From positions 20,482 through 84,481 of the forward strand of contig DATLYY010000003.1 in NCBI GenBank assembly GCA_035574275.1: a stretch of DNA of 64,000 nucleotides, read 5' to 3'. Under the pieces are notes generated by a model. That model did not search any database, was not told the origin of the DNA, and saw only the letters and a list, made by a program, of their open reading frames with translations. Shown here in pieces: positions 2,102 to 46,936 of the stretch (position 1 is its first letter; the number at the start of each line of letters is the position of its first letter). Source of the DNA: Verrucomicrobiia bacterium (lineage in GTDB: Bacteria; Zixibacteria; MSB-5A5; DSPP01). A program made the position numbers and the translations under genes.

Positions 2102-2151
2102 GCAAGCGGAAGTTACGCGCTTCCCTTGGGCTGTCAAGAACGGAAATAAGG

Positions 2152-15176: not shown

Positions 15177-15258
15177 AACCCTTTATTAAGTATAACCTCC
15201 CCTTCAAAAAAAACAACAACGCTCCCCCGGATTTTCCGTATAATTTATGACCAACGGT

Positions 15259-23784: not shown

Positions 23785-23810
23785 CTTTTCCGTAACCCTT
23801 TCCCCCTCTC

Positions 23811-32339: not shown

Positions 32340-32368
32340 TTTATACCAAATCCCCCAAAACTTGTCAA
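32340..32368 (-). promoter_or_regulatory. sigma70-type promoter TTGACA-N17-TATAAA ending 7 nt before the ATG (leaderless SDR mRNA)
   Basis: Minus strand: TTGACAAGTTTTGGGGGATTTGGTATAAAAACACCAATGG. Confidence 0.6.
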
Positions 32369-32375
32369 GCTGCCT

Positions 32376-32711
32376 CTACGTTTTTCTCCGCAGAGCATCG
32401 ACCACCGCCTCTTCCATTTCGACAACCACGGTGGTATGGTTTTCAATCAGCCCCACAATCGCATTCCGCGGGCCTTTGCGCCACTCCTCGCTGCCGTAAA
32501 AGGCATCCTGGCTTTTCTGCCGGTCTTCCAAACCTTGATAAGCGCGAATCAGATAGTAGGAATCGCCATCGTGAAGCGAAGGACCGAAGTCGACTACATC
32601 CACCTTCCAGCGTTTGAGCATCGGCATCGATTTTTCCAGAACGAGCCGGTGAAACTCCTCCCGCCTGCCGGGTTTGAGATTATAGGCGCGGATTTCGACC
32701 GTTTTCTTCAT
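32376..32711 (-). CDS. NIPSNAP-family protein
   Basis: About 110 aa with the N-terminal EIRAYNLKPGRREEF pattern typical of NIPSNAP/Dabb-like ferredoxin-fold proteins. Confidence 0.6.
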   Translation of the reverse strand: MKKTVEIRAYNLKPGRREEFHRLVLEKSMPMLKRWKVDVVDFGPSLHDGDSYYLIRAYQGLEDRQKSQDAFYGSEEWRKGPRNAIVGLIENHTTVVVEMEEAVVDALRRKT

Positions 32712-33160
32712 TTATCTCTTCCGGCGCGGCCGCTGTTGGCGGTCTGTGATGGGGGCGTTTCCCGGGTGGCGGGCTCAATCAAACTGGATGCGGCCAGAAG
32801 CCCGGCCTTGAGAATAAGATTCTCCGGAATGGCCTCGAACACGGTCTCCTCCACTTCGACCGTCCGGCACTCGGACTCTCCGCAAACCGAGCAGCAGGGG
32901 CTGGCGCCGGCCTTTCCCTCCAGCCACTCCTCCATCGGCCGTCCCCCCATCCAAATGCGGTTGGACTCCGCGGGATTGGCCTTGAACGTTTTTTCATCGA
33001 TTGCCCGCGTTTCCAGAACCGGGCGAATTCCCAGCGGGGCAAGCGCAAGCGAAAGTTTCTCTACGGCCCGTTCCATCTCCTTTTGCGTCGTGCCGCAGCG
33101 TTCACAGGTCCTTCCATCCGGCGTCACCAATCGTTGCCAGACAATCGGCAGTTTTTTCAT
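32708..33160 (-). CDS. cysteine-rich (CxxC...CCxxC...C) thioredoxin-like/DUF2703-like protein
   Basis: Conserved Cys spacing. The start is set to MKKLPIVW. The family assignment is tentative. Confidence 0.45.
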   Translation of the reverse strand: MKKLPIVWQRLVTPDGRTCERCGTTQKEMERAVEKLSLALAPLGIRPVLETRAIDEKTFKANPAESNRIWMGGRPMEEWLEGKAGASPCCSVCGESECRTVEVEETVFEAIPENLILKAGLLAASSLIEPATRETPPSQTANSGRAGRDK

Positions 33161-33528
33161 CCCCTCTTCCCTTCCTGCACGAACCGCAAACAATTCCCGT
33201 CCGCGTCCTTGACGTACATTTCCCGCGTCCCCCAGGTTTGATCCACCGGCCCGGAGTCAATCGGGACAGTTTTGGCCTTGAATTCCCTATGGAGCGCATC
33301 CACGTCGTCGACGTAGATATTCGCTACGCCGCCGGCAACCCCGTCGCCGGAGAAGGAGGAAAGATGCAGCCAGACGCCGTCCCGCGAAATTCCCATATAG
33401 CAGGGGTCCGTTCTTTTCTCATCCGGCCGGACGGCAAATTCCTGCTTGAAACCGAGCCGCCCGCAATAAAATTCCTCCGCCTTAATGGAATTGGAGATAT
33501 GCAAAACCGGGATGGCGAATTTGAGCAT
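33157..33528 (-). CDS. VOC/glyoxalase/bleomycin-resistance family protein
   Basis: About 120 aa with a beta-alpha-beta-beta-beta glyoxalase-like pattern (HLSF...GNCLRFVQ). Confidence 0.7.
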   Translation of the reverse strand: MLKFAIPVLHISNSIKAEEFYCGRLGFKQEFAVRPDEKRTDPCYMGISRDGVWLHLSSFSGDGVAGGVANIYVDDVDALHREFKAKTVPIDSGPVDQTWGTREMYVKDADGNCLRFVQEGKRG

Positions 33529-33537
33529 CCAAGCCCC

Positions 33538-33798
33538 TTATTTCCCTTCCGCTTCCCGCTCCATTTTATAAAGGCGGGTGTAGTAATCGGCAAACTCGTT
33601 CAGATGGGCGAGCGCAATTTTGCCGGTCAAAATGGGGTCGTCGCCGGTTACGTTTGTGGAGGGGTCGACAAGGCCGTGTTCCAGTTCCACGTCCAGCCCC
33701 ATCCGGAACTGCTCCACGTCAAAGCGCTTCCAATCAATGCCCAGCATTTCGCCGATTTGGCGGGCCTGCTCGGCGGTGAACTGTTTTTTGGCTGACAC
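33538..33798 (-). CDS. small hypothetical protein (86 aa)
   Basis: GTG start preceded by AAAGGAGAAAAG. No known motifs recognised. Confidence 0.5.
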   Translation of the reverse strand: MSAKKQFTAEQARQIGEMLGIDWKRFDVEQFRMGLDVELEHGLVDPSTNVTGDDPILTGKIALAHLNEFADYYTRLYKMEREAEGK

Positions 33799-33817
33799 CT
33801 TTTCTCCTTTGCCCCCT

Positions 33818-33842
33818 CTCGACTGAAGTCGAGGCTACCACC
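33818..33842 (-). repeat. second copy of the CCTCGAC-N4-GTCGAGG-CTACCA hairpin
   Basis: Matches hairpin 2 plus the right flank of the 31467-31527 element. Confidence 0.45.
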
Positions 33843-33855
33843 TTAAAACCTTTGT

Positions 33856-33898
33856 CTTGTCCCCTCTCCGTGTCGGAGAGGGTTAGGGTGAGGTTAAC
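33856..33898 (-). repeat. copy 2 of the 42-nt hairpin element; its GGTTAA supplies the TAA stop of the DinB-like gene
   Basis: CTTGTCCCCTCTCCGTGTCGGAGAGGGTTAGGGTGAGGTTAAC, 41/42 identical to copy 3. Confidence 0.7.
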
Positions 33899-34409
33899 CC
33901 ATCCTTTCCAAGAATCTTTCTATCTGCCTTCGATGCCGCAAAATATGGACGATGGCGTGTTCCAAAAGCTGTTCCAAATCGTAGGTCGGGCCCCAGCGTA
34001 CGGTCATTTTTGTGTTCTGTATCTCCTCATCCGTCATCTCCCACTTCCCTTCGAGCGTTCCCGCCGTGTAGCGCAGAAAGCCGTCGATTTTCCCCGCCGC
34101 TTCCTGCCGGGCAACCATTACACCCGACCCGCCAGGTCCATTTGGCGACCCGCGCAAGTGTTCTTTGGGGGTTTGGGAGGGAATGCCGAACGCCCCCCGG
34201 ATGTAGTCCGCATAGCCGTATCCGGCCCGCACCACGTGGGTGATGATGGTTTGGATGGAGCGGCAGTCGGGGTCTTTGGTGTCGGGGTCGACGATGCGCT
34301 CATATTGCTCCACCGTGGCTCTTCCCACCACGTTTTTTAATTCCCCCCCCGCCCGTTCGTACTCATCCATCATCGCCCCCACCCCGCCTTTACGGTAAGC
34401 TTTTGTCAT
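33894..34409 (-). CDS. DinB/YfiT-like (DinB_2) metal-dependent protein
   Basis: His-rich helical bundle with a C-terminal H..H.RQ motif. Confidence 0.65.
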   Translation of the reverse strand: MTKAYRKGGVGAMMDEYERAGGELKNVVGRATVEQYERIVDPDTKDPDCRSIQTIITHVVRAGYGYADYIRGAFGIPSQTPKEHLRGSPNGPGGSGVMVARQEAAGKIDGFLRYTAGTLEGKWEMTDEEIQNTKMTVRWGPTYDLEQLLEHAIVHILRHRRQIERFLERMG

Positions 34410-34473
34410 TTTCCTCCAAACGATAATTCACAAATTAATATTTCCAATTTGACTGCAACTTTCATTTGTATGT

Positions 34474-35505
34474 TCATCTTCCATGATGTCGAGCAACTTC
34501 TTCTTTGCTCAAGCGCAGAAACCGAGCGGCGTTGATGTATAGAATGTCCCGTTTCTGCTCCTCAGACAGAAACGGTGCCGATTCAATTGCGTCTATGGAG
34601 GGTTCGATGACGCCGGGCCACACCATCTGGTCGGAGCCAAACATAATCCGTTTTCCAAAACCGGCTTCCACAATCGTGCGCAGAAAACGGTAAAGCTCGG
34701 CGCGGGGGAGTCCGAAGATGATTCCGCCCAATTCCGCGTACACCTGGGGATGCGCCCAAAATAGGGCCAGTAAATCATCCAGCATTGGCCAGCCAGCATG
34801 CATAATGTAAACTCGTAGTTTCGGACGCCGGATGAGCGCTTCTTCCAAGGTGAGCGGACTGTGTAAAGCGGCCCGATAGCGGCCGGCTCCCAAATAAGGA
34901 GCCCCGGGCGGGCCGGTCCCGATGTGGATGCCGACCGGAATGTCCAGTTCTTCCGCCACCGCGAGGTATGGTTCAAAAAGAGAGTCATCGGGTCGAATGC
35001 CGACATATTGGTTGGTTACCTCGGCCAGAACTGCAAAGTGCCCGGACTGATATAATCGGCGGAGCGAATCAGGGGAGATTTTTTCGCGGCCAAACTGGAA
35101 CTGAAAACCGGCGATGAATCGGCCCGGCGCGGCCTTGCTCCATTCTCGCACCCGTTCCAAAGTCCCGCTCAAGACACCAAAAACGTTGCGCCTTTTCATC
35201 GCCGCAATGGTCTGCCACATAAGTTCCTCGTCTGTTTTGGGCGACCAAACAGGATCGGGACAGGGGGGGTTTTTCTGCCAAGCGATAAAGATATCCCCCC
35301 ACGATTCGGCCGGATCGTTGGTTGGAAATCCTTGGGTGGGCACACACAGCCCCAAAGGGGGCGGCCCGTTGGCGTCCGCTGACAATGCGTGGAGGTGCAT
35401 ATCGATGACTGGAAGGCGTCCTTGGGCGGAAAGCGGATTTGCAAAAAGAAGAATCAATAGCCCCAGGAGTAGTCCCAACCTTCTTGTTTCCGCATGATTT
35501 GTCAT
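34474..35505 (-). CDS. secreted amidohydrolase-family (amidohydrolase_2) metal-dependent hydrolase
   Basis: Signal peptide, an IDMHLHA metal-binding start, and TIM-barrel hydrolase motifs. The start is set to MTNHAET (35505) by promoter position. Confidence 0.75.
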   Translation of the reverse strand: MTNHAETRRLGLLLGLLILLFANPLSAQGRLPVIDMHLHALSADANGPPPLGLCVPTQGFPTNDPAESWGDIFIAWQKNPPCPDPVWSPKTDEELMWQTIAAMKRRNVFGVLSGTLERVREWSKAAPGRFIAGFQFQFGREKISPDSLRRLYQSGHFAVLAEVTNQYVGIRPDDSLFEPYLAVAEELDIPVGIHIGTGPPGAPYLGAGRYRAALHSPLTLEEALIRRPKLRVYIMHAGWPMLDDLLALFWAHPQVYAELGGIIFGLPRAELYRFLRTIVEAGFGKRIMFGSDQMVWPGVIEPSIDAIESAPFLSEEQKRDILYINAARFLRLSKEEVARHHGR

Positions 35506-35512
35506 TGGCGGC

Positions 35513-35541
35513 TTTATACCATACTCCGAAAAACTTGTCAA
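35513..35541 (-). promoter_or_regulatory. TTGACA-N17-TATAAA promoter ending 7 nt before the ATG (leaderless)
   Basis: Minus strand: TTGACAAGTTTTTCGGAGTATGGTATAAAGCCGCCAATGA. Confidence 0.6.
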
Positions 35542-35686
35542 CTACTCCACAACCGTCAAAAGCCTTTCCGTGGAGGCTTGGGGGCGGTAATCATGGAGAA
35601 ACGAGAAAAGCGGCCTAACTCCGGCCGCTTTCTCGAAATTGCAAAAACCGAAAAGGTCGGGAACTATCCCTAAAAAAGCTTGGCTC

Positions 35687-36124
35687 CTACTTGGCCGGAA
35701 TCAGGTCGAACTTGCCGGCGCCTTCGTTGTAAAAGAGCGCGCCCTCCGTGGAGTCACCGCCGCTCCAGTGCTTGTGCCCGCCCGGAATCCGCAGGAATTC
35801 TCCGGGGCCGACCCGCTTTTCACCGTCGTCGTCCTTATACAGATAAGCCCCCTTGATAACCACGAGCCAGTTATCGTTGGTGTGTGTATGCCATCCGGCG
35901 TCGAATCCGGGCACGAATTTGACAAAGGAACCAAAGCGCCCTTTGTCCGGATCCCCCCATAGGGTTGCCCGGGAAGCGCCGGGAACTATGTCCTTGTAGG
36001 TTGCCTGGTCGGCCGAGGCAAAGGTCGCTTTTTTCGCCTTGGGCTGTTTCGCCTGCCCAAAACCGATTACGTAGACAACGGCTAAAAGAATCGCCGCCGC
36101 CAGAAACGCCACTATTTTTTTCAC
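35687..36124 (-). CDS. secreted cupin-domain protein
   Basis: Signal peptide plus cupin-like G.H.H....E...G / G..H motifs. GTG start preceded by AAGGAGG. Confidence 0.65.
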   Translation of the reverse strand: MKKIVAFLAAAILLAVVYVIGFGQAKQPKAKKATFASADQATYKDIVPGASRATLWGDPDKGRFGSFVKFVPGFDAGWHTHTNDNWLVVIKGAYLYKDDDGEKRVGPGEFLRIPGGHKHWSGGDSTEGALFYNEGAGKFDLIPAK

Positions 36125-36153
36125 GTCTTCCTCCTTTGTTTGTTTGCGTAGTT

Positions 36154-36182
36154 GGTATAGCCAATCTTTGAAAACTTGTCAA
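36154..36182 (-). promoter_or_regulatory. TTGACAAGTTTT-N-TATACC promoter with a 30-nt SD-containing leader
   Basis: Same extended -35 as the other copies. Here a leader with AGGAGG follows. Confidence 0.5.
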
Positions 36183-36905
36183 CTACGTGAGGACTTCCAA
36201 AAGCTTTTCTGAAAGCGCCTCCGGCACGGTAATCATTGAGCAATGGGAGGTGGCCAGTTCCATGTATTTCCAGTCGGGCCGCCCTTTGAGTTCCCGCGCC
36301 AAGCGGGGAAATGAGCCGTCGGGGGGATTGCCCGTGCAAAAAATGAAAGTTCGCGGAATTTTTTCCGCTTTGGGATTTCCGAGAATGGCCGGCTCAATGA
36401 CCGTGCGATAAGGATGCGCCGTCAGCTTGGAACGGAGCCACTCCACGTCCTTCTCAATGCTGATTCCAAGCGTTTCGCTCTTTGGGTCCAAGGCCGGAAT
36501 CTTCCACCCCTCCCCTTCCGTTTTGGCCAGTTCTTCCAGCATTATTCGGAAGCGCTCCACCTGCAAATCGGAAAGGGATTTTCCATTTTCCGGCACAAAG
36601 GCGTCCAAGTAAACCAAGTGGGCAATGCGCTCCGGCACTCGATGAGAAACAGAGCCGATTACCATCCCGGAGTAGCTGTGCCCCACCAAAACGACATCGT
36701 GCAAATCCTGAAATTGGAGGAAGTTCACCACGTCATCCACGTGTGTCTGCAACCCGACTTCGGGAGTCAAAAGATGGGAACGCTCTCCCAAACCGGTCAA
36801 AGTGACGGCGGAGGCCTCGTGCCCGTGGGCGCACAGCCTGGGTATCACCCGGTTCCAGCACCACGCGCCAAAAAAGGCGCCGTGGACTAAGACGAAATGA
36901 GCCAT
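36183..36905 (-). CDS. alpha/beta-hydrolase fold esterase (methylesterase/SABP2-like)
   Basis: HGAFFGAWCW N-terminus, GHSYSG nucleophile elbow, and a C-terminal His. Confidence 0.75.
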   Translation of the reverse strand: MAHFVLVHGAFFGAWCWNRVIPRLCAHGHEASAVTLTGLGERSHLLTPEVGLQTHVDDVVNFLQFQDLHDVVLVGHSYSGMVIGSVSHRVPERIAHLVYLDAFVPENGKSLSDLQVERFRIMLEELAKTEGEGWKIPALDPKSETLGISIEKDVEWLRSKLTAHPYRTVIEPAILGNPKAEKIPRTFIFCTGNPPDGSFPRLARELKGRPDWKYMELATSHCSMITVPEALSEKLLEVLT

Positions 36906-36912
36906 TAGCTTT

Positions 36913-37305
36913 TTATTTCTTTATGTACGGCTTCAACTGCAAATCAATGCGGCCGATGTGGCTCTTGAGCCAGTCCTCCGCGATGCCCATAAGCTCGTGC
37001 GCGTCCTCGGATAAATAGCCGCGCGATTCATACCGCTTGCGAAAGTCGTCATAGACCGAAAGAAAGCGGGCGTGATCCTCCCGGTTTTTGTCCGCTATCG
37101 GACAGCGGTATTCCTCCATGCACCGTTCCTCGTATTTGAAATGCCCGCGGAAGTAGCGCTCCAGAAAATCAAGCAAAAGTCCGAATGTTTTCTCCCCCCG
37201 GCCTTCGCCGAGAGCGGTCTGAAAATCCCCCACCGTCTTGAAAAGCATTTTGTGCTGTTCGTCGATGCGCGGCTCGCCGACGGCATAGCCGTCACTCCAT
37301 TTCAT
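36913..37305 (-). CDS. hemerythrin-like metal-binding protein
   Basis: H...H..E...H....H.....D ligand pattern (DEQHK, HFKYEE, DHARF). The start is set to MKWSDGY, adjacent to the upstream stop. Confidence 0.7.
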   Translation of the reverse strand: MKWSDGYAVGEPRIDEQHKMLFKTVGDFQTALGEGRGEKTFGLLLDFLERYFRGHFKYEERCMEEYRCPIADKNREDHARFLSVYDDFRKRYESRGYLSEDAHELMGIAEDWLKSHIGRIDLQLKPYIKK

Positions 37306-37859
37306 TTTTTTACCTCTCTGTTTCCATATTTTTCCGCCAGCTTTTTGACTGTGGTCACATTGCGCAAAGTGGTGGGCTGGCCGAGCGTTTTTTCCAAAAG
37401 CGGCCCGGAAAATTTGGTCTCCTTGATTGAGCTCGCGCTCAAAAGCCAATAAAGTTCCCGGCCGTGGAAATCAAAGCGGTCGATTTCGGATTCGGCGGCC
37501 AAAAACTTCTTTTTCGCCTCCGCGGAAACCGGCGCCTGCAAAAAGCCGACGTAAAGCGCGTGGCTTTTGGCGACCTCCGATTCGGAAAAAGGCCGGTAGC
37601 CGGCGATTTCGGCCAGTTCCGAACTGGAACGAATGAAGGTGGAAACCTCGTAGCCCAGCGATTTTTTCAAATGCGCTTCGATTTTCTTTTCGAGTTGCAC
37701 CGGATTTTTGGAAGAGGAATCGAAGATAACGTTGCCGCTGGCGATGAAGGTTTCGACGCTGGAGAAACCGAGGGCTTCAAAAAGCTTTTTCAACTTCTCC
37801 ATCTTCACGGTATGCCCGCCGACGTTAATGGCGCGCAGAAAAGCAATATAGGTGGGCAT
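37302..37859 (-). CDS. DUF1697-domain protein
   Basis: N-terminal YIAFLRAINVGG signature of DUF1697. Confidence 0.65.
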   Translation of the reverse strand: MPTYIAFLRAINVGGHTVKMEKLKKLFEALGFSSVETFIASGNVIFDSSSKNPVQLEKKIEAHLKKSLGYEVSTFIRSSSELAEIAGYRPFSESEVAKSHALYVGFLQAPVSAEAKKKFLAAESEIDRFDFHGRELYWLLSASSIKETKFSGPLLEKTLGQPTTLRNVTTVKKLAEKYGNREVKK

Positions 37860-37923
37860 CGGGACAAATCTATGGAAGAATGCGGATGGTAGTCAAGCAA
37901 TCGTTCACCCCATCCTTTGGCCT

Positions 37924-37965
37924 TCTTGTCCCCTCTCCGTGTCGGAGAGGGTTAGGGAGAGGTTA
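37924..37965 (-). repeat. copy 3 of the 42-nt hairpin element; its GGTTAA supplies the TAA stop of the small ORF
   Basis: CTTGTCCCCTCTCCGTGTCGGAGAGGGTTAGGGAGAGGTTAA. Confidence 0.7.
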
Positions 37966-38093
37966 AAAAATCAGCGCAAAAGCAAGCCGATTCCCAGAAT
38001 GAGCGCTGTCAGCGACAGATAAACCAGCGCGCTGATGGCCTTTCCGGAACGGTTCGGGAATCTCTGCTGAATCAGTTTGACGATGTGAATCAT
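37962..38093 (-). CDS. small ORF (43 aa) with its own promoter and SD; a -1 shift at an A4 run would yield a 40-aa TM peptide (MIHIVKLIQQRFPNRSGKAISALVYLSLTALILGIGLLLR)
   Basis: ATG 38093 follows AAGGAGAGAGG. The in-window frame ends MIHIVKLIQQRFPNRSGKGHQRAGLSVADSAHSGNRLAFALIF. The adjacent frame encodes a perfect hydrophobic helix but has no start codon, suggesting a homopolymer frameshift (AAAA at 38040-38043). Confidence 0.35.
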
Positions 38094-38135
38094 CCTCTCT
38101 CCTTTCCGCGTTGCTTACAATCCAATTGCCTCAAA

Positions 38136-38164
38136 TGAATAGCCAATTGGCGAAAAGTTGTCAA
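38136..38164 (-). promoter_or_regulatory. TTGACAACTTTT-N-TATTCA promoter for the small ORF
   Basis: Extended -35 as in the other copies, with a 17-nt spacer. Confidence 0.45.
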
Positions 38165-38174
38165 CCAAAATCGC

Positions 38175-38636
38175 TTATTGCGCCTCCACCGTCACTTCCG
38201 ATTTTATCGAGTTGGCGATGTAGCATTCCTCGTGGGCGGCGTGGTGCAGGGCGGAAAGCTCCGAAGCGGAGGGCTGCTTTTCCCTCGAAAACCGAATTTT
38301 CGGCCGGAGCGTGATGCGGGTAATGGCGTATTTTCCCTTTTCGTTTTTTTCCATCAGGCCAAACGCGTCGTCCTCGTAGGCATCGACGACAAAGCCCTGC
38401 TTGGAGGCCAGCGACAAGAAGGTGAGCATATGGCAGCTCGAAGCCGACGCCACCAAGGCCTCTTCCGGGTCAATCGCTTCCGCAACGGAGAGCGGCGCGC
38501 GGACAACTTGGGGAGAGGCGGAGGCGGGGATTTTTATCCCGCCGTCAAAGCTCCATTCATGCCCCCGGCTGTACTGCTGGCCGGTGAACTTCGCCCCGTT
38601 CCGGCTCCACGTAACTTTGGCTTCGTATTTATGCAT
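38175..38636 (-). CDS. OsmC/Ohr-family peroxiredoxin-like protein
   Basis: About 150 aa with the two conserved Cys (SSCHM...EECY) of OsmC. Confidence 0.75.
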   Translation of the reverse strand: MHKYEAKVTWSRNGAKFTGQQYSRGHEWSFDGGIKIPASASPQVVRAPLSVAEAIDPEEALVASASSCHMLTFLSLASKQGFVVDAYEDDAFGLMEKNEKGKYAITRITLRPKIRFSREKQPSASELSALHHAAHEECYIANSIKSEVTVEAQ

Positions 38637-38651
38637 TCAAAAAACTCCTTC

Positions 38652-39023
38652 CTAACCGGCATGCGTTATCATCAAACAGTACCCGTCCGGGTCGGTGACC
38701 CGGAACTCCCCGCGCGGGGCGTAAAAAGGATACTCGATTTCCCCGGCCATAACTCCTTTTTTCTGCAATTCTCCCCGAAAAGCGGCAACATCTTCACAGT
38801 AGATATAGAAGAGAACCGCCTGCGCCCGGGCATCCACCGGCTCGTCCGCGCGAGTGACCATCAAGTGCGACCCGCCCGAACGGAGCCAGGCCCAAGCCGG
38901 TTCCTTCTGGTCAGACGGCGTAAAAGTGTTGCCAACTTCGAAGCCCAGTTTTTTGTAAAACTCTATTGAACGCGGCACGCTTGCGACGTGCGCCATCGGC
39001 ACCAAGGAATGAAGCGGCTTCAC
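38652..39023 (-). CDS. VOC/glyoxalase family protein
   Basis: Glyoxalase-like fold pattern (SIEFYKKLGFE...GYCLMI). Confidence 0.65.
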   Translation of the reverse strand: MKPLHSLVPMAHVASVPRSIEFYKKLGFEVGNTFTPSDQKEPAWAWLRSGGSHLMVTRADEPVDARAQAVLFYIYCEDVAAFRGELQKKGVMAGEIEYPFYAPRGEFRVTDPDGYCLMITHAG

Positions 39024-39024
39024 C

Positions 39025-40176
39025 CTACCGTTTTCCCTCCGGCGAAACGCGCAAAATTCGCCCCTCCGGATTATCCGTCAACAAATAAAGCAACCCATCC
39101 GGCCCCTGGCGGACGTCCCGAATCCGCTCGTGCAGATAGCCCAGATAGCGTTCTTCTTTTGTAACTTTGCCATCCTTCAATTCCAGCCGCACCAAAAGCC
39201 CGGGGGTAAGTGAGCCGATAAAAACGCTCCCCCTCCACTGGGGGAAAGCGTCGCCGGTGTAAAAGCACATTCCGGAGGGGGCAATCACCGGGTCCCAATA
39301 ATAAACTGGTTGCTCCATCCCCGCTTTGGCCGTTCCTTCGCCGATTTTGGTAAGGTCGTAATCCGTGCCGTAGGTGATGACCGGCCAGCCGTAATTTTTT
39401 CCCGCTTCGGGCTGGTTCAGCTCATCCCCGCCCCGCGCCCCGTGCTCCACCGTCCAGAGTTCCCCCGTTTCGGGATCGAGCGCGGCGCACTGCACGTTGC
39501 GGTGGCCGTACGACCAGATTTCCGGCCGTGCACCCTTACGGTTGACGAACGGATTATCTTTCGGAATGGTGCCGTCCGGGTTGATGCGGACGATTTTGCC
39601 GAAGCCGTTGGACAAATCTTGCACCCGGTCCCGGTTGTAGCGATCCCCCTGTGTGACGAAAAGCGTCCCGTCCCGCCGGAAAACCAGCCGCGAACCGAAG
39701 TGAATCTGTTCCTCCACCTTCGGCACTTGGCGATAGATTATGCGTACGCTGTCCAGCCGGTTTTCAGAAAGCTTCCCCCGCGCCACGGAGGTTCCCGCCG
39801 TCCCGTCCTCCCCCGGCTCGGAAAAAGAGAGATAAACGAACCGGTTTTTTTCAAAGTCCGGGTCGAGACAAACATCCAAAAGCCCTCCCTGTCCCCGCGC
39901 CCGGACGGGAGGAACCCCTTCCAGCGGCGGCGAAAGTTTGCCACTTTGGCTAACGATTCGCAGCCGCCCCGGCCGTTCGGTAACCAGCGCCCGCCCATCG
40001 GGGAGAAATGCCAGTCCCCAGGGACGTTCCAAGCCGGAGGCAAACGTCTCCACTTTTACGGGCACTTCAATCGGCGGGGGAGTCGGCGATTTCGGCGCCT
40101 GCGTCTGGGCGGATGGATCGCGAGACGGGCTGCAAGCCCAGAGAAACGTGATGGCGAGCGGAAGCAGCCGTTTCAT
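39025..40176 (-). CDS. PQQ-dependent sugar (sorbosone/aldose) dehydrogenase lipoprotein, YliI-like
   Basis: Lipobox LWAC, followed by [26 protein letters not shown] and six-bladed beta-propeller motifs. Confidence 0.8.
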
Positions 40177-40299
40177 CTTTTCTTTTCCGGTTCGGGATGC
40201 CGTCATGAAAATGAATAATTAACCCCGCTTTTGCCCGCCGGTCAAGCGGCCAGGATTAAACAAACCAAATGATTGCCAGAATGGACTTCGAACTACTCT

Positions 40300-41301
40300 C
40301 TATGGCTCTCCGTTCTCTCCGGCAACAAGAAGACCTTCTGCCAGTGGGCTTTTCTTTTTGGGCGTGGCCACAAAACCCCGGCTGAACTCGTTGTACGTAC
40401 CGACGATTTCCCCTTTGTCATTCATTCCGAAAGGCGCCGTGTCGGACGCACCTGGGAAATCGATGGTCGTATACTCCCCGTCTTCATAGACGAAGCCATG
40501 CTGGATTCCGTCGGCACCGCGGTAGTATCCGCTGATTGTCCCAGGATTGTTTACGCTTCTCGGCAGTGTGTTCACGGCGCCGGGGAAATCGATGGGCTCG
40601 GTTTGACCACGGCGCAGGAGGAAGCCATGGAAATGAGCTTCGGCATCCCTCCAATACCCCACAACCTCTTCTTTATCGTTGATTCCAGTAAGGACCGTTC
40701 GCGTCGTTCCTGGATAATTGTAGATTTCGTAACTGCCGGCACGCCGGATAAACCCGTGTCTTCCACCTACAGCATCGATGTAAAAGCCGACGACTGTGCC
40801 AAGGTTGTTAATCCCCTGCCCTTCGGCGAATATCGCATCAGGCGCAGGGCTGGGCAGGACGGTTATCTCTCCTCTCGGCCCCCGCAGGTACATATGCGCG
40901 TTGTCGTCCGCGTCGGTGAATATGCCGAGGGCTACTCCCCAGTCATTGATGTCCAGAAGCGTGCCACGGTCGCCGGGGCCGGCGCCCGGCACCACGACAT
41001 CCGTAAAACTGCCCTGATGATAAAGAAACCCGTGCGCACTTCCGTCCGGAGCGGCAAAGTTCCCCACAATCACGCCGGTGTTGTTGTTGCCGTAAGCGCT
41101 GGTGTAGCTGCCCATTTCGGCCGGGACATCGAATGGCAAAAGTTCGTAGGTCGTGGTAGTAGCAGCCGTGGCAGTAAATCTTAACCCAGGCACTGCGTTG
41201 TTAGATGGTAGTGGTGCGACCGGAGCGCGTTTGGTACTGCATCCAACTGCCACTAGAAAAGAGAAGAGAATTAATTTCCCTGCACTAAAACACCTGAACA
41301 T
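40300..41301 (-). CDS. lipoprotein with HAF-like (HGF) extracellular repeats
   Basis: Lipobox VGCS, plus six or more repeats of GINN.G.VVG......HGFL, resembling the HAF repeat family. Confidence 0.6.
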   Translation of the reverse strand: MFRCFSAGKLILFSFLVAVGCSTKRAPVAPLPSNNAVPGLRFTATAATTTTYELLPFDVPAEMGSYTSAYGNNNTGVIVGNFAAPDGSAHGFLYHQGSFTDVVVPGAGPGDRGTLLDINDWGVALGIFTDADDNAHMYLRGPRGEITVLPSPAPDAIFAEGQGINNLGTVVGFYIDAVGGRHGFIRRAGSYEIYNYPGTTRTVLTGINDKEEVVGYWRDAEAHFHGFLLRRGQTEPIDFPGAVNTLPRSVNNPGTISGYYRGADGIQHGFVYEDGEYTTIDFPGASDTAPFGMNDKGEIVGTYNEFSRGFVATPKKKSPLAEGLLVAGENGEP

Positions 41302-41433
41302 GGAGCCTCCCTTGAGATTATGTTAATTCAAACTAACACCGTCAATTCCCCTCGGCTCGTTTGTTGCAGCAAACTTCAACCTGTCATAAAACCCTCCCTT
41401 TCCCCAGAGTCAAACTTCTTTTCCCGATGGTGA

Positions 41434-41462
41434 TAGTATGATAAATGCCTAAAAATTGTCAA
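41434..41462 (-). promoter_or_regulatory. TTGACAATTTTT-N17-TACTAT promoter with a ~130-nt leader
   Basis: Extended -35 motif. The leader contains a 3-codon uORF. Confidence 0.4.
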
Positions 41463-41524
41463 GCCAAGGCCTATGCGTCTTGAGATCTCGTCCCGCGGTT
41501 GCACCACGACAACCGCGGTTTGGC

Positions 41525-42343
41525 TCAGCGCTTGTCGTACTCGTCGCGGCGGCGCCACCAGGGGCCATCCGGTTCGTTGCGTCCCTTGGGGGCGCGGTCG
41601 AGCCACTGGTACATCCCCCAGAGGCCGTCCAATCCGCGCGCATAGGTGGAATAGGTGTGGTAAACGACGCCGTCTTCCAGAACGAACGAGCTCATGCCCG
41701 GCCGCTCGCGCGTGTACGTGGCCACGTCGGTTCCCGTCATCGCCGCGTGGGCGACGATCACCTCGTCGCCGGTCTGACGGACCATGCGCGAGACCACCGG
41801 TACGGCGGGCTCTCTCCGATAGTTGTAATCGATGCCTCCCTGGCGCTGCTGCTCTTCGGTGAATCCGACGCTGAAGTCGAAGTTGAAATCGCTGCCGAAC
41901 GAGGACGCCCAGGGAAAGTTCCACCCCATCCGCCGTTTGTAGGCCTGCAGTTTGGCGAGCGGCGCCCGCGACACCCCCCAGAGCATCACGTCATGGTTGG
42001 CCAGATGAATGGTGAACCCGTTGAAGCCGTCCGCGATCATCGAGCAGGACGGGCAGCCCGCCGTGTAGTCAGGCCCGAACATAAAGTGATAGACGAGGAG
42101 TTGCGAGCGCCCCCGGAAAAGACCTGACAGTGAAGCGCTCCCCTCTTCGGTCTCGAATTTATACTCCTTATCGACGCGAACCCACGGCAGCTCCTGCCGC
42201 CGCCGTGCCAGTTCGTCGCTCTTCCGCGTGAGTTCCTTCTCAGCTTTGAGCAGTTCGAGCCGCGCGGCGAGCCATTCCTCACGTGTCCCGGTTTTATGCT
42301 TCGTCATTGCTCTAATCTCCTTCCGTTTTCGTTTCAAATTCAA
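41525..42343 (-). CDS. DUF899 (thioredoxin-like) family protein
   Basis: Family-typical length (about 260 aa) and a CPSC motif in a thioredoxin-like context. Confidence 0.65.
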   Translation of the reverse strand: MNLKRKRKEIRAMTKHKTGTREEWLAARLELLKAEKELTRKSDELARRRQELPWVRVDKEYKFETEEGSASLSGLFRGRSQLLVYHFMFGPDYTAGCPSCSMIADGFNGFTIHLANHDVMLWGVSRAPLAKLQAYKRRMGWNFPWASSFGSDFNFDFSVGFTEEQQRQGGIDYNYRREPAVPVVSRMVRQTGDEVIVAHAAMTGTDVATYTRERPGMSSFVLEDGVVYHTYSTYARGLDGLWGMYQWLDRAPKGRNEPDGPWWRRRDEYDKR

Positions 42344-42346
42344 ACA

Positions 42347-42937
42347 TCACGTTTTCGCGGCGGTCTTCACATCGGCCGGAATGCGTTTCTCATACTCCGC
42401 CTCCAACTTGGCGTGGTTGGACCAAAAAGGACGCGGCGGCACACCGTGCAGAATATCAGACAGGATGGCCAGGTGGATGTGCCAGCCGCCCGAAACCCCG
42501 ACCATGTTCCCCCGGGTCGCCAGCCGACGGTGCGTCAAAACAAGCAGAACCTCCTTGCCGCGTGCGGAAAGCTCAAAGGTGACTTCCGACGGGGGCCCCT
42601 TTTCTTCATGCCAGAGAAAGGTCAAAACCCGCGGCGGCTCACAGCGCACAACCTCCCCCGTGCAGCTGTACCCTTCATACTTTTGGTACTTCTCCGGCAC
42701 GGGCTCTTTGTGAGGCGACAGTTGGGAGTTGTACCAGACAAGCTCCATTTTTCCCCCGGGTTTCAGTTCCATCGGCCCGGCGGCGAACCATTGCCGCCGT
42801 TTTTCCGATTCGGTCAAGTAGGCCCAGACTCGTTCGATGGGCCCGGGCAAAACCCGCTCGATGCGAACCTCTCCGGGCCCGGTGACCGTGCCGTAGGCTT
42901 CCTGTTTGTCTTGCAGTTCCTTCGGTTTTGCATTCAT
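42347..42937 (-). CDS. SRPBCC/AHSA1-domain protein
   Basis: Activator-of-Hsp90-ATPase-like/polyketide-cyclase fold. Typical partner of ArsR regulators. Confidence 0.7.
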   Translation of the reverse strand: MNAKPKELQDKQEAYGTVTGPGEVRIERVLPGPIERVWAYLTESEKRRQWFAAGPMELKPGGKMELVWYNSQLSPHKEPVPEKYQKYEGYSCTGEVVRCEPPRVLTFLWHEEKGPPSEVTFELSARGKEVLLVLTHRRLATRGNMVGVSGGWHIHLAILSDILHGVPPRPFWSNHAKLEAEYEKRIPADVKTAAKT

Positions 42938-43314
42938 TAGGATTTTCCTTTCCTTTTAAGGGTTTTTTTCGCGGCTTCCCCCCTCATGCGATCTTCAGCT
43001 TTAAGCAATTCCTCAAGGGCATCAAGCCGGGCACTCCAAAAGGCGTGCTGGGTTTCCAGCCATTTGATGGCCTCTTCCAGCGGTTTGAAGTTGAAGGCGA
43101 GAAAATGCTCCCTTCCTTCCACCCGCCGCCGTACGAGATTTGCCCGTTCCAGAATCCGGATATGCTTGGAGACGGCATTCAGGGAAATGTCGAACGGCTT
43201 TGCCAGCTCGGTCACCCGCGCCTCCCCCTTGGACAGCCGCCGGAGAATGCCTCGCCTCGTCGGGTCGGCCAAGGCCAGAAGGGTTTCATCGATTTTATTG
43301 GCCGCCATTGCCAT
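42937..43314 (-). CDS. ArsR/SmtB-family transcriptional regulator
   Basis: LADPTRRGILRRL...ELAKPFDISLNAVSKHIRILERANLV winged-HTH region. Confidence 0.85.
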   Translation of the reverse strand: MAMAANKIDETLLALADPTRRGILRRLSKGEARVTELAKPFDISLNAVSKHIRILERANLVRRRVEGREHFLAFNFKPLEEAIKWLETQHAFWSARLDALEELLKAEDRMRGEAAKKTLKRKGKS

Positions 43315-43365
43315 TATTCAACCTCAAGGTTGAATATAATTCCAGCCCGGCTGGTTTGTCAAGGA
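43313..43365 (-). promoter_or_regulatory. divergent promoter with a 22-bp palindromic operator TATTCAACCTCAAGGTTGAATA overlapping -10 and the start
   Basis: TTGACA-N18-TATATT on the minus strand. A near-perfect inverted repeat sits at 43313-43335. Confidence 0.55.
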
Positions 43366-43443
43366 AAATTTTATATTTTGATTAGGTGTTCGGTTACTGC
43401 TTGCCCGACAAAAACTTACTTGCCGCCAAGCTCAATTTTCTTC

Positions 43444-43485
43444 TTGACAGCTTAACTCTTTATCGTATATTGACGATTAACGATA
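43444..43485 (+). promoter_or_regulatory. TTGACA-N16-TATATT promoter and ATCGT/ACGAT operator-like repeat for the arsR-arsM operon
   Basis: TTGACA at 43444-43449, and TATATT 14 nt before the ATG. Confidence 0.5.
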
Positions 43486-43863
43486 ATGAAAGAGCAAATG
43501 ACGCAAAAAAAGGCAAACCCCATACACCCCAAACGCCAAAGCGGACGGGCGGTTCGGACCGAAAACGAAGAGTTGGCCCAATTGGCCAAAGCCCTCGGCC
43601 ATCCGGCCCGGGCCGCCATTATGCGGCTTCTCTTGACCGGCGGGGAGTGCATCTGCGGCGGCATCGTCGACCGGCTGCCCTTGGCCCAGGCCACCGTATC
43701 GCAGCATCTGAAAGTGTTGAAGGAGGCGGGCTGGATTACCGGCGAGGTCGACGGCCCGCGCGTTTGCTACTGCGCCCGCCCCGGAACCCTCCAGCGTTTT
43801 CTGGCGCTGGTGCAGGCGCTCGAATTTGGAAGGGAAATGAAAGTCGAAAGGAGTAAATCATGA
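43486..43863 (+). CDS. arsR: ArsR-family metalloregulator (arsenite-type, ECICG metal site)
   Basis: [11 protein letters not shown]...CICGG...[14 protein letters not shown]. Overlaps arsM by 4 nt. Confidence 0.85.
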
Positions 43864-44648
43864 AAAAGGACATTCAGGACGCGGTGCGGGAGCATTACGG
43901 CCGCATTGCCCAAAGCCCGAAGGCGGAGGGTTGCTGCGGGGGTAACGGCTGCGGCTGTGCCACGACCGAGGCCGCGGAAAATCTTGGTTACACGGAGGTG
44001 CAACGCGCGGCCATCCCGGCAGGGGCCGATTTGGGCCTGGGCTGCGGCAATCCGCTCGCCCATGCGGCACTGAAGCTGGGCGAAACGGTGCTCGATCTCG
44101 GTTCGGGTGGAGGACTGGATGCCTTCCTCGCATCCAAGGAGGTGGGCCCCCCCGGACACGTTATTGGCGTTGATATGACCGCCGCAATGATTTCCCGCGC
44201 CCGCTCGATTGCCGCCGAGCACAACTGCGTCAATGTGGAGTTTCGACTCGGCGAAATCGAAAACCTGCCGGTGGCGGACGCTTCGGTGGATGCAGTTATC
44301 TCCAACTGCGTCATCAACCTTTCGTCCGATAAGCCGCGGGTGTTTCGGGAGGCGCTGCGCGTTCTCAAACCGGGCGGTCGAATGGTCGTGAGCGACCTGG
44401 TGCTTGTTGCCCCGCTGCCCGAGCAGGTGCGAAAATCGGTCGAGGCCTATGTCGGCTGTGTGGCCGGCGCCGCCATGAAGCAGGACTACTTGCAAATGAT
44501 TGGAGAAGCCGGTTTTGAACGGGTGGAAGTCGTGGAGGAGCGAACCTACGGCGTGGGAACCGACCTCGAAACCGAGATTGAAAAACAAACCGCCAAGGCC
44601 GTCCGCTCCATCAAAGTTCGGGCCTTCAAACCGGAATCGTCCAAATAG
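43860..44648 (+). CDS. arsM: arsenite S-adenosylmethionine methyltransferase
   Basis: Cys-rich N-terminus (CCGG.GCGC), SAM motif VLDLGSGGG, and a conserved Cys in NCVINL, as in ArsM. Confidence 0.8.
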
Positions 44649-44690
44649 GCCAGAACGACCGGAAGAATTTGCGGAACCGAATGGCGGCGA

Positions 44691-45236
44691 TTATTCGCCG
44701 CCCAGTTTGGCCTTTGTCTTGGAAACCCAGTTCGGCGCGGAGTCTATTTTCTGCCGCAAAAGGAGATTCAACTGCGCGGCGTGGTGCTGCACGTGGCGCA
44801 TATTGTACATCAATAACTCCGCCACGGTCATATCCCGGTAGGGTATGCCGGCAGACCGGTGCGCCTTATCCTCCGAAAAATCCACCATCAATTTCCCAAA
44901 TTTTTGCCAGCAATGCGCAAGATAAGACAGGAGCTCCTCTTTCGTATAGACCCGATCCGGCAAAGCTCCTTCCGGATCGAACTCCGAGAGCGTAAAGGGA
45001 GCGGGAGGCGAAAACTCGTTTTCTGACGTGGGTGCGGGATAGGTCAAGTAGTAATCGAGAAAGAAAAGAGTGTGGTAAACCAAATACCAGAACCCGACGA
45101 CGTCGCTTTTTTTCCACATCGGTTTTTCTGAGAAATTTCCCCATACATCATCGGGACAGGCATGGATGGCGTTTTCCATCATATCCATAGCCGCGCCAAA
45201 TTGATTCCAGATGATGGCCTTCCAGGTTTTATCCAT
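44691..45236 (-). CDS. DinB-family (DinB_2-like) protein
   Basis: C-terminal H..HH..Q motif. The start is set to MDKTWKA. Confidence 0.55.
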   Translation of the reverse strand: MDKTWKAIIWNQFGAAMDMMENAIHACPDDVWGNFSEKPMWKKSDVVGFWYLVYHTLFFLDYYLTYPAPTSENEFSPPAPFTLSEFDPEGALPDRVYTKEELLSYLAHCWQKFGKLMVDFSEDKAHRSAGIPYRDMTVAELLMYNMRHVQHHAAQLNLLLRQKIDSAPNWVSKTKAKLGGE

Positions 45237-45237
45237 T

Positions 45238-45558
45238 TTATGATGCCTCCCGCAAACCCGTCCCTTCCCTCGCATACAGGTAGGCAGGCAACGCGCAGGA
45301 AAGGCCGATAAAGCAGTTCAAAAGGATAAAGAGGAGCGGATGCGGCCCCTTCCTTCGGCTCCGCTCCAAAAACATAAATAACCAGAAGATTCCCGAGGAA
45401 AGCAGCAAATCCGTGGTGAACGCGCTTGCCGCCGGATTGGCGAATACGGCAGCCGTTAATTTGGAGGGGCTGAAACCCTCGCTCAAAAGATGCTGAATGA
45501 AAAAGAAATATGGCAAGACCGCCCCGACAACCGCCAGCGCAAGAAATAATTTTTTCAT
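45238..45558 (-). CDS. DUF2834-like small membrane protein
   Basis: Three TM helices. The family assignment is tentative. Confidence 0.45.
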   Translation of the reverse strand: MKKLFLALAVVGAVLPYFFFIQHLLSEGFSPSKLTAAVFANPAASAFTTDLLLSSGIFWLFMFLERSRRKGPHPLLFILLNCFIGLSCALPAYLYAREGTGLREAS

Positions 45559-45586
45559 CCCGTTCCTTTCTTTTCCAATAACTTTG

Positions 45587-46858
45587 CTATTTGATCAAAA
45601 TCATCTTCCTCGTGGATTCGTACTTCCCGGCACGCAATTGGTAGAAATAAACCCCGCTTGGAAGACCGTCTGCATCAAAACGAACCGAATGTGTTCCGGC
45701 TTTCTTGGACCCGGCCACAAGCGTTCGCACCTTTCGCCCCAGAACATCGTAAACTTTCAATTCCACCGGCCCCGATGCGGGCAAGGTGAAAGAAATTGTG
45801 GTGGCGGGGTTGAATGGATTGGGGTGGTTTTGACCGAGCTGGAAATCGGTAGGTAGCTGGGACTTCGGCTCCTTCACGTCCGTGCCGACGTCCAAATACC
45901 ACAGGCCGTCCAGCCGCGCCGCCCACAGCCGGCCTGCGGTCATAACGAGGTCAAAAAGCTCTACAAATTCGTGTGCCTGAATGTTCCAATTTTGGCCGAA
46001 GTCATCCGTGTACCAAATGAAATGTTCGAGGTTGAACCGCACCCCGGCATACAGACGGGCGCCGTCGGCCGCGAGGGCCTCGACATCCCGCCCCGGAAGC
46101 CCGGCAATGTCTATTTTTTCCCAGTTTTGGGCGTTCAGATCCCCGCGGTAAACGCCGTCATCCGTCCCGGCAAATAGATAGGAACCGAGCGGAAGGGTCT
46201 CAAATACGAGCCGCTGGGCCGGCGGGGAGTTCAGGTAAACTTCCGTCCATTGCGCGCCACCCTGCGGACGGACGTAAAAATACAACGCAATGCCAGCCGT
46301 GAGATGGTTTCCGCTCGTGCCGATTGAGTTGACCCCGAACACCGAAAGCCCCTCGTTGTAGGCAGACCAAGAAGTTGAACTGGAGAGCCGCCGCACGTAC
46401 ACGCCGCTGCCGCCCGTTCCGGCATAGATGCTGTCACCGAGCACCGCCAAGCCGGTGATGGCGCCGGCCGGCAGCCCGGTGGAATAGGCCTCCCAGCTTT
46501 GTCCGCCGTCGCTCGTGCGGAAAACACCATCTTTCCACGTTCCGATATAGAGAAACGCTCCGTGCGCAAAAAGCCGGAACAAATCGTCGGTCAATCCCGG
46601 AGGCACGGCGGCCGCCCCCCAGTTGTTTCCGCCGTCCGTGCTTTTGAAGACCGAATCGGCCGTGGCAGCAAAGAGCGTCCCGTTATGCAAAACGATGGAA
46701 TAAACCAGCGTTGAACCAATTTCGGCTACCTGCACCCAGTTCTGGGACCTTGCGTTGCCGCACCACAGCACCGCCGCCAATAAAACCGCGGCTACCGCCG
46801 TTCTCTGCCTCAATACTCCAAATTGCCGCGCCTTCTCTCCCATTCCAACCGCCATTGG
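45587..46858 (-). CDS. secreted BNR/Asp-box repeat (Ycf48/sortilin-like) protein with a C-terminal Por/T9SS-type sorting domain
   Basis: Signal peptide, multiple S.DGG..W Asp-boxes, and a C-terminal NHPNPFNPATTISF...SGVYFYQL...KMILIK. The start is set to MAVGMGEK (46858) by promoter position. Confidence 0.75.
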   Translation of the reverse strand, partial: PMAVGMGEKARQFGVLRQRTAVAAVLLAAVLWCGNARSQNWVQVAEIGSTLVYSIVLHNGTLFAATADSVFKSTDGGNNWGAAAVPPGLTDDLFRLFAHGAFLYIGTWKDGVFRTSDGGQSWEAYSTGLPAGAITGLAVLGDSIYAGTGGSGVYVRRLSSSTSWSAYNEGLSVFGVNSIGTSGNHLTAGIALYFYVRPQGGAQWTEVYLNSPPAQRLVFETLPLGSYLFAGTDDGVYRGDLNAQNWEKIDIAGLPGRDVEALAADGARLYAGVRFNLEHFIWYTDDFGQNWNIQAHEFVELFDLVMTAGRLWAARLDGLWYLDVGTDVKEPKSQLPTDFQLGQNHPNPFNPATTISFTLPASGPVELKVYDVLGRKVRTLVAGSKKAGTHSVRFDADGLPSGVYFYQLRAGKYESTRKMILIK

Positions 46859-46865
46859 TGTTTTA

Positions 46866-46894
46866 TACCCAATGCCCAAAAACTTGTCAACCCG
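46866..46894 (-). promoter_or_regulatory. TTGACA-N17-TATAAA promoter ending 7 nt before the ATG (leaderless)
   Basis: Minus strand: TTGACAAGTTTTTGGGCATTGGGTATAAAACACCAATGG. Confidence 0.6.
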
Positions 46895-46936
46895 AACCTT
46901 GCCAGCCGTCGTACGTAAAGTTATTTTGGGTGTCCG

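Follow-up and report, generated by a model that had tools for sequence, protein, structure and literature searches.

A window of 64,000 nt from an uncultured soil bacterium, treated here as a Zixibacteria-like member of the Fibrobacteres-Chlorobi-Bacteroidetes (FCB) group, carries near-consensus promoters whose -10 boxes end only a few nucleotides before the start codon of a gene. The locus raises the question of whether such genes are expressed from leaderless mRNAs, and whether the additional bases shared by several of these promoters mark a regulon or a special sigma factor. The explanation that we favor, with a probability of about 0.7, is that near-ideal housekeeping sigma-70-type promoters abut the ATGs and give leaderless mRNAs, and that the extra similarity among them comes from a general strong-promoter spacer and from local copying. 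Spacing and conservation were compared with relatives that share approximately 80–90% nucleotide identity with the window.

The search for TTGACA-N15-19-TATAAA returned exactly three matches in the window, all on the minus strand and all with a 17-nt spacer. Dinucleotide-preserving shuffles contained 0.01 matches on average and none of 100 shuffles reached three, so that the three TTGACA-17-TATAAA promoters listed in an earlier, sequence-only reading of this DNA are borne out. That reading placed each of them exactly 7 nt before an ATG, which is correct for the SDR and amidohydrolase genes but not for the BNR gene, whose ATG lies at 46855 rather than 46858 and leaves a gap of 6 nt. The extended motif TTGACAAGTTTT, allowing at most one mismatch, was found six times, with -35 boxes at 32368, 35541, 36182, 38164, 41462, and 46890. 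All six copies, referred to below as the cassette, are located on the minus strand, either in intergenic DNA or right behind a stop codon, and are co-oriented with the next gene. Written as TTGACAA[G/C/T]TTTT, the extended -35 word has six occurrences, each of them at a gene boundary and aimed at the downstream gene. Allowing two mismatches to TTGACAAGTTTT added four matches, none of which has a -10 box at the expected spacing. Equal frequency of the motif inside coding regions, the check proposed in the sequence-only reading, was not observed, with six of six copies at gene boundaries. The sites therefore have the properties of sigma-70 promoters with regard to the TTGACA -35 box, the spacer of 17 ± 1 bp, and the intergenic, gene-oriented position. 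Among 31 promoter-like sites in the window, five have the start codon of a long open reading frame (ORF) 6–8 nt downstream, compared with approximately 0.05 expected by chance according to a rough estimate.

The -10 box ends about 6–8 nt before the start codon, as in leaderless genes, at 32332, 35505, 46855, and 37859 (7, 7, 6, and 7 nt, respectively), and the gaps at 2191, 46937, and 2099 are 8–10 nt (Table 1). The SDR promoter starts 7 nt past the stop codon of the upstream NIPSNAP gene. Cassette, 7-nt gap, and ATG are all retained in the SDR ortholog of L030 (Zixiibacteriota PMV_8.32, approximately 80% nucleotide identity), where the second ATG of the window gene reads GTA, i.e., is not conserved. 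The homology between the two SDR loci extends to 2 nt upstream of the -35 box, beyond which L030 has a different gene. The amidohydrolase ortholog L209/P0122 (85% amino acid identity) keeps the cassette, TTGACAAGTTTTTCGCAGTATGGTATAAA, and the 7-nt gap. Its N-terminus is equal in length to that of the window protein (MAKQTGSRK vs. MTNHAETRR), and the ortholog was called at 343 aa. The signal peptide of the amidohydrolase has a charged n-region only with the start at the promoter-abutting ATG 35505. Starts of this gene have been called too far downstream, giving 334 aa in the NCBI record (9 aa later) and 248 aa in a Logan call (95 aa later). The BNR ortholog in L123 keeps 16 of the 17 spacer bases and the 6-nt gap.

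Two further genes share the layout and have no cassette copy in front. The DUF1697 gene is a fourth clean case that the sequence-only reading did not include, and its Pfam DUF1697 match begins at residue 1. For lapA, the proposal that the gene shares the pattern holds with a TAAAAT -10 box and an 8-nt gap that is kept in three relatives (L203, L205, and L207). The hexamers and ATGTGGGCG are likewise conserved in them, and the spacer is variable. Thus, lapA provides a predicted case of this near-leaderless arrangement at a housekeeping gene. Its counterparts in two distant Zixibacteria follow a leader that contains GGAGG, so leaderless lapA appears to be specific to this clade. The gene at ATG 2099 has a very short predicted leader and no Shine-Dalgarno sequence. 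A very short leader is also predicted at ATG 46937, where the -10 box, the gap length, and the ATG are conserved in L123.

In these comparisons the distance from the -10 box to the ATG is held while the intervening bases change. For SDR, amidohydrolase, and lapA, both the ATG and the N-terminal length are conserved, indicating that the promoter-abutting codon is the true start. Since the spacing is kept in relatives for SDR, amidohydrolase, BNR, and lapA, the proposed leaderless architecture is supported at the level of sequence. The -10 distance and the C|A step, from which we infer the transcription start, support leaderless or near-leaderless mRNAs for SDR, amidohydrolase, BNR, DUF1697, and lapA.

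Table 1. Promoters, promoter-abutting genes, and related features in the window. Gaps are counted between the -10 box and the start codon.
Feature	Position	Strand	Details
SDR promoter	32340..32368	-	-35 TTGACA 32368-32363, 17-nt spacer AGTTTTGGGGGATTTGG, -10 TATAAA 32345-32340
SDR gene	32332-31538	-	ATG 32332, 7-nt gap from -10 box
amidohydrolase_2 promoter	35513..35541	-	TTGACA-17-TATAAA, TATG extended -10
amidohydrolase_2 gene	35505-34474	-	ATG 35505, 7-nt gap; encodes signal peptide
BNR/T9SS-tail promoter	46862..46890	-	TTGACA-17-TATAAA
BNR/T9SS-tail gene	46855-45587	-	ATG 46855, 6-nt gap
DUF1697 promoter	37867..37896	-	TTGACT-18-TAGATT, 7-nt gap to ATG 37859; no cassette copy
lapA promoter	2154..2182	+	TTGACA-17-TAAAAT, 8-nt gap to ATG 2191; no cassette copy
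Divergent promoter	2110..2137	-	TTGACA-16-TAACTT, 10-nt gap to ATG 2099; conserved in L206 and L207
Divergent promoter	46899..46927	+	TTGCCA-17-TATTTT, 9-nt gap to ATG 46937 (176-aa ORF)
Cupin promoter, cassette copy	36154..36182	-	TTGACAAGTTTT...TATACC, ~23-nt leader with AAGGAGG, GTG 36124
Cassette-like promoter	38136..38164	-	TTGACAACTTTT...TATTCA, upstream of Shine-Dalgarno-led 40-aa ORF 38093-37971
Cassette-like promoter	41433..41462	-	TTGACAATTTTT, -10 CATACT or TACTAT, ~125 nt upstream of gene starting 41301
Decayed copy of 3' end of alpha/beta-hydrolase gene	35545..35606	-	directly upstream of amidohydrolase promoter
Exosortase-like gene, TATAAT	15239..15244	+	conserved start 15259, 14 nt after -10 box

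According to the proposed mechanism, RNA polymerase with the primary sigma factor would bind the -35 box, the spacer, the extended -10 element, and the -10 box. Transcription would start at an A preceded by C, 6–7 nt past the -10 box at 46855 and 7–8 nt past it at 32332 and 35505. At SDR, amidohydrolase, BNR, and DUF1697 the start would lie 0–1 nt before the A of the start codon, and at lapA and the two other genes with gaps of 8–10 nt it would lie a few bases before the ATG. The transcript would open with AUG or AAUG, with no pairing to the anti-Shine-Dalgarno sequence, and translation would proceed via direct ribosome binding to the 5'-terminal AUG, as in mycobacteria and Deinococcus (PMC6028130). 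The similarity among the promoters would have two causes, namely selection for the general strong-promoter spacer pattern and local copying of the promoter within a variable block of single-gene stress/detox units. One cassette type precedes both predicted leaderless and leadered genes.

To assess how common this layout is, 65 curated gene starts in the window were surveyed, with a match of at least 4 nt counted as Shine-Dalgarno-like. Such a match precedes 35 of the 65 starts, and seven starts have a promoter 6–10 nt upstream and no such match. Start-abutting promoters are thus found at approximately 11% of genes in the window. The leaderless layout is a minority class, comprising perhaps one quarter of the operon-leading genes by a rough count, and does not represent a dominant mode. 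The description of leaderless mRNAs as widespread was overstated, given these counts and the failure of two candidates in the conservation comparison. One of the two is the exosortase-like gene, which had been reported to show the same pattern. Its ATG 15247, located 2 nt after TATAAT, reads ACG in L203, and use of the conserved start, at 15259, implies a short leader; L205 has GGAGG before the conserved ATG. The other is the PQQ-dehydrogenase gene, whose ATG 40206 (9 nt after TAATTA) is ACG in L123 and whose conserved start at 40176 has a Shine-Dalgarno sequence and a lipoprotein signal. A literature search on leaderless expression in Zixibacteria found nothing.

The conserved AGTTTT extension and the CCAATGG start context had been taken as more than a generic sigma-70 consensus. 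Across bacteria, the 17-bp spacer comprises four regions, i.e., a T-rich tract by the -35 box, a GC-enriched region, a second AT tract, and a stretch rich in G bearing the TG extended -10, and four-region spacers raise promoter strength (PMC12641261). A start element, Y-1 R+1 (Y+2), is found at the transcription start (PMC12641261). The cassette spacer AGTTTTT|GGGC|ATT|GGG (or TGG) and the CC|A before the ATG match this four-region spacer and the start element, with the AGTTTT extension corresponding to the T-tract beside the -35 box. TGG, TATG, or TGC stands directly before the -10 box in the copies at 32368 and 35541 and in L030, L011, and L209, and several copies have a full TRTG or TGn extended -10 (TATGG, TATGC, TTTGG). 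By sequence comparison, the auxiliary elements of sigma-70 promoters (extended -10, four-region spacer, and YR start element) are all present. The bases once considered special therefore map onto general promoter elements.

The occurrence of the motif outside the clade points in the same direction. The exact 18-base motif pattern was scanned in 185,579 genomes and gave at least 120 matches, a scan from which enrichment cannot be measured. Among the matches listed, single ones come from Treponema, Clostridia, Flavobacterium, Candidate Phyla Radiation bacteria, and others, and several resemble good promoters, some with TGGTATAAA. Relatives of the host account for two of the 120 listed matches (L030 and L011), at orthologous or positionally equivalent sites. 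A lineage-restricted motif is ruled out by the presence of the exact motif in many phyla among these matches, and the suggested lineage-specific sigma or UP feature finds no support. Perfect TTGACA boxes with a good -10 box number 26 in 157 kb of sequence from the clade versus 5 in 655 kb of unrelated soil contigs, and in these control contigs TTGACAAGTTTT with at most one mismatch has two weak matches only.

The extended -35 had also been reported with leadered genes at 36182, 38164, and 41462, and this was confirmed, as each of these copies is located before a leadered gene. The -35 box at 36182 directly adjoins the TAG with which the alpha/beta-hydrolase gene ends. A second promoter-like site at 41345-41317 lies ahead of the gene starting at 41301. 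In L011 the cassette precedes a pirin gene with a leader of approximately 37 nt containing AGGAGG, and in L123 it precedes a membrane protein gene with a leader of approximately 60 nt.

The copies at 35541 and 36182 are, on the sequence comparison, segmental duplicates flanking the cupin gene and its terminator. Repeat analysis showed that 35530-35606 is homologous to 36171-36248, which comprises the promoter and the final ~75 nt of the alpha/beta-hydrolase gene. The register is the same in repeat families D7 and D14, with an offset of 641-642. Local alignment of the DNA upstream of the two -35 boxes scored above 2000 of 2000 shuffles. Because the homology extends into the remnant of a neighboring gene, the two promoters can be regarded as true duplicates. 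The local order is hydrolase 3' end, promoter, cupin, terminator, hydrolase remnant, promoter, and amidohydrolase. A hydrolase remnant is likewise located upstream of cassettes in L123 and, weakly, in L209. In the repeat analysis the copies form a 57-nt family (67–75% identical) and a 32-nt family (75–84% identical), and the repeat families that bear on descent are D1, D2, D7, and D14. Gene-order breaks between relatives coincide with cassette edges.

Several observations weigh against the proposed explanation. In L123 the BNR gene begins with GTG, and both genomes conserve another ATG 12 nt further downstream, which makes BNR a less secure leaderless case than the others. The -7 T of a -10 box is normally close to invariant. 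The cassette -10 boxes have the A at -11, but most of them carry A or C at -7 (mostly TATAAA, plus TATACC, TATTCA, and TATTAA); the copy at 41462 (CATACT or TACTAT) is an exception that ends in T. The -7 T is present in almost every other conserved promoter of the clade (TAAAAT, TAAATT, TAACTT, TATATT, TATCGT, TAGATT, and TATTTT). Cassette spacers are identical at 15–16 of 17 positions between relatives, whereas in the same genome pairs the lapA spacer is identical at approximately 8–11 of 17 and the spacer of the promoter at 49932 diverges as well, which could mean that a factor binds the cassette spacer. Descent is proven only for the 35541/36182 pair, and the first-codon similarity of SDR and amidohydrolase is not significant. 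Regarding translation, the genes may not be leaderless if their true starts or their transcription starts lie elsewhere, with the boxes being incidental or serving a short leader. The downstream starts annotated automatically for the amidohydrolase, the second ATG of BNR, and the leaders of the two look-alike candidates, exosortase-like and PQQ-dehydrogenase, would fit this alternative. It is nonetheless improbable, since the -10-to-ATG distance stays constant despite base changes in between, the second ATG of SDR is unconserved, and the amidohydrolase, whose ortholog was called at 343 aa, needs ATG 35505 for a signal peptide with a charged n-region. ORF extensions upstream are unconserved as well, because homology between relatives starts at the -35 box, and no Shine-Dalgarno sequence fits in front of the alternative starts.

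The other question is what reads the cassette. It had been suggested to mark a regulon, in which a dedicated factor acting on the spacer or the -10 flanks, or a group 2 stress-type sigma factor preferring no T at -7, would co-regulate stress, detox, and secreted genes. The nature of the downstream genes (SDR, amidohydrolase, cupin, pirin, BNR, and similar) is in line with this suggestion, as are the spacer identity, the missing -7 T, and an ATTGG...CCAAT inverted repeat around the -10 box in some copies (46890 and 38164). However, the copies share no conserved dyad or repeat. The distance between the ATTGG and CCAAT arms differs from copy to copy, with no such arms in L030, L209, or the copy at 35541, and an operator search by eye found GTTTT...AAAAC and ATTGG...CCAAT repeats in some copies with neither spacing nor presence conserved. 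Each conserved spacer segment coincides with a general RNA polymerase element. The copies are clustered in 15 kb, at least two of them are duplicates, and the remaining ~49 kb of the window and the MutS-region loci L203, L205, and L207 yielded none. At two nearby ArsR-family regulators, each promoter carries a separate, distinct palindrome. With generic spacer elements, occurrence in many phyla, and duplicated copies, a regulon is unlikely. Spacer conservation is not confined to the cassette, because an ordinary promoter near 1124, upstream of an HNH gene, is about as well conserved (14/16), and shared descent together with selection for strength can explain that of the cassette. A related possibility, and a slightly less likely one than the regulon, is that the cassette is a portable unit of ~45 bp combining a strong promoter with an unusual -10 box and a leaderless start, placed by recombination before newly acquired single genes in the variable stress-gene block of this Zixibacteria clade and read by a dedicated factor (a group-2 sigma or a spacer-binding protein). 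If true, a gene so placed would gain instant co-regulated expression with no ribosome binding site. Compared with these alternatives, housekeeping sigma-70-type promoters abutting the ATGs remain the preferred explanation, and the absent -7 T remains a small oddity. The findings as a whole leave the current understanding unchanged.

Other readings of the motif were tried and rejected. Reading it as a Bacillus sigma-B-like promoter (GTTT...GGGTAT) gives a spacing of 7–8 nt, which is wrong, as the sigma-B consensus spacing is 12–14 nt. A Bacteroidetes-type promoter (TTTG / TAnnTTTG) is absent. A shared 5' coding module of SDR and amidohydrolase (MAxHTET vs. MTNHAET) was dismissed, with a local alignment p of approximately 0.37; the best pair in the first-codon alignments reached 0.0085 before multiple-test correction.

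In mycobacteria the typical signal of leaderless genes is only TANNNT. In the promoters described here, by contrast, the -10 box comes with a complete -35 box and a spacer that fits the consensus. In the GeneMarkS-2 classification, leaderless genes define group C, mainly Actinobacteria and Deinococcus-Thermus (Mycobacterium, Streptomyces, Deinococcus), and 90% of the FCB-group genomes surveyed belong to group B, with a non-Shine-Dalgarno ribosome binding site (PMC6028130). The window resembles group C in having a Pribnow box 6–8 nt before the start of the first operon gene, with no 5' untranslated region or Shine-Dalgarno sequence, beside Shine-Dalgarno-led genes (PMC6028130). It differs in that the host apparently belongs to Zixibacteria (FCB), that the fraction of such genes is modest (~11%), and that leaderlessness is predicted from sequence here. 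The cassette is also like the general sigma-70 core (Kuo et al., NAR 2025, PMC12641261), with a 17-bp four-region spacer in the published order and a C|A step that fits Y-1 R+1, a match by sequence alone, and unlike its consensus in having TATAAA, with A in place of T at -7.

Putative mobile promoters have been defined as upstream sequences of 50–100 nt that are at least 80% identical before non-homologous genes (Matus-Garcia et al., 2012, PMC3488235). The cassette is similar to them in that near-identical promoters stand before unrelated genes within the genome and in relatives and have been copied with flanking DNA. Unlike mobile promoters, the 57-nt and 32-nt families fall short of the length/identity threshold, all copies lie within a single block of 15 kb, and features of a transposon or a miniature inverted-repeat transposable element were not seen.

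The layout itself is already known. Predicted leaderless expression is here extended to an FCB-group clade, a group usually classed as users of non-Shine-Dalgarno ribosome binding sites. lapA would be a gene that has a leader in distant Zixibacteria and is predicted to lack one in this clade. The locus is also a natural example of a near-ideal sigma-70 promoter reused, apparently by duplication, before different genes. In practice, gene callers mis-start such genes in metagenome-assembled genomes, and the amidohydrolase loses part or all of its signal peptide in this way. Recognizing promoter-abutting starts would improve the annotation of Zixibacteria and relatives. Exact-protein look-ups of SDR and PQQ-dehydrogenase gave no match, probably due to differing annotated starts.

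The host probably belongs to the Zixibacteria lineage of the FCB group. The best MutS matches with an organism name are from candidate division Zixibacteria (85–89% identity), and a large further set of matches at approximately 50% identity is likewise from Zixibacteria. The labels of close public records disagree: one partial MutS match (89%) is labelled Limisphaerales, a record 100% identical to the amidohydrolase is labelled Verrucomicrobiae, and L011 (70–76% nucleotide identity) is labelled Ignavibacteria. The 32–47 kb block consists of minus-strand genes, mostly single-gene units. They encode SDR, NIPSNAP, DUF2703, glyoxalases, DinB-like proteins, amidohydrolase, cupin, alpha/beta-hydrolase, hemerythrin, DUF1697, OsmC, a PQQ sugar dehydrogenase, DUF899, two ArsR regulators, a methyltransferase, and the BNR protein with a type IX secretion system (T9SS) sorting tail. 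Outside this block, the window carries housekeeping genes, including lapA, a TPR protein gene (lapB-like), mutS, mutL, relA/spoT, gdh, and genes of lipopolysaccharide glycosyltransferases. No known RNA families or tRNAs were found in the window.

Whole genes have been gained or lost in the block with breakpoints at promoter cassettes. The alpha/beta-hydrolase gene (window 36183-36905) corresponds in L123 to a 17-codon C-terminal remnant (13105-13160; MITAPEALSEKLLEVLK followed by the stop codon), located directly upstream of a cassette. The segment of approximately 310 bp between OsmC and DUF1697 (window 37860-38170) is absent in L123, in which 4 nt separate the two genes (TAG-CGAA-ATG). It carries a cassette-like promoter, the 40-aa hydrophobic ORF 38093-37971, a hairpin repeat, and the DUF1697 promoter. 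At L011 5530-5600 the cassette keeps ATGGCAAT of the SDR-type start, and is followed by a predicted leaderless mini-ORF of 17 codons, which overlaps with the Shine-Dalgarno-led start of pirin and may represent an upstream ORF or a relic. At L123 11177-11205, half a cassette, TTGACAATTTTTGGG, which lacks a -10 box, leads directly into the AGGAGAAG-ATG where a secreted-protein gene starts. This junction is probably a scar left by recombination.

A GC-rich hairpin, CCCTCTCCG-NGT-CGGAGAGGG, has three intergenic copies in the window (23804-23824, 33862-33882, and 37931-37951) compared with 0.01 expected. Two of them lie within a 43-nt repeat that is 98% identical (33855-33897 and 37924-37966), and one sits inside the ~310-bp segment absent from L123. 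The hairpin looks like a repetitive extragenic palindromic (REP)-like element or a terminator lacking a T-tract. The divergent ArsR-family genes each have a near-consensus promoter (43292-43362 on the minus strand and 43444-43486 on the plus strand), and a separate palindrome overlaps each promoter. The two palindromes, TTCAACC-TTGA-GGTTGAA (also conserved in L123) and ATCGT-N6-ACGAT, are probably autoregulatory operators. We suspect that the methyltransferase after one ArsR gene is ArsM-like, given its position beside ArsR. A further promoter, TTGACAA-N-TGGTATCGT, is located at 49904-49932 on the minus strand, with counterparts at L123 3269 and L011 1654. It is followed in the three genomes by a conserved, predicted transcribed stretch, ACAACGGCGTAAGGAAGTTG, and downstream of it lies a repeat-rich region (~48.5-49.5 kb), for which blastn returns multiple alignments of the window to its relatives.

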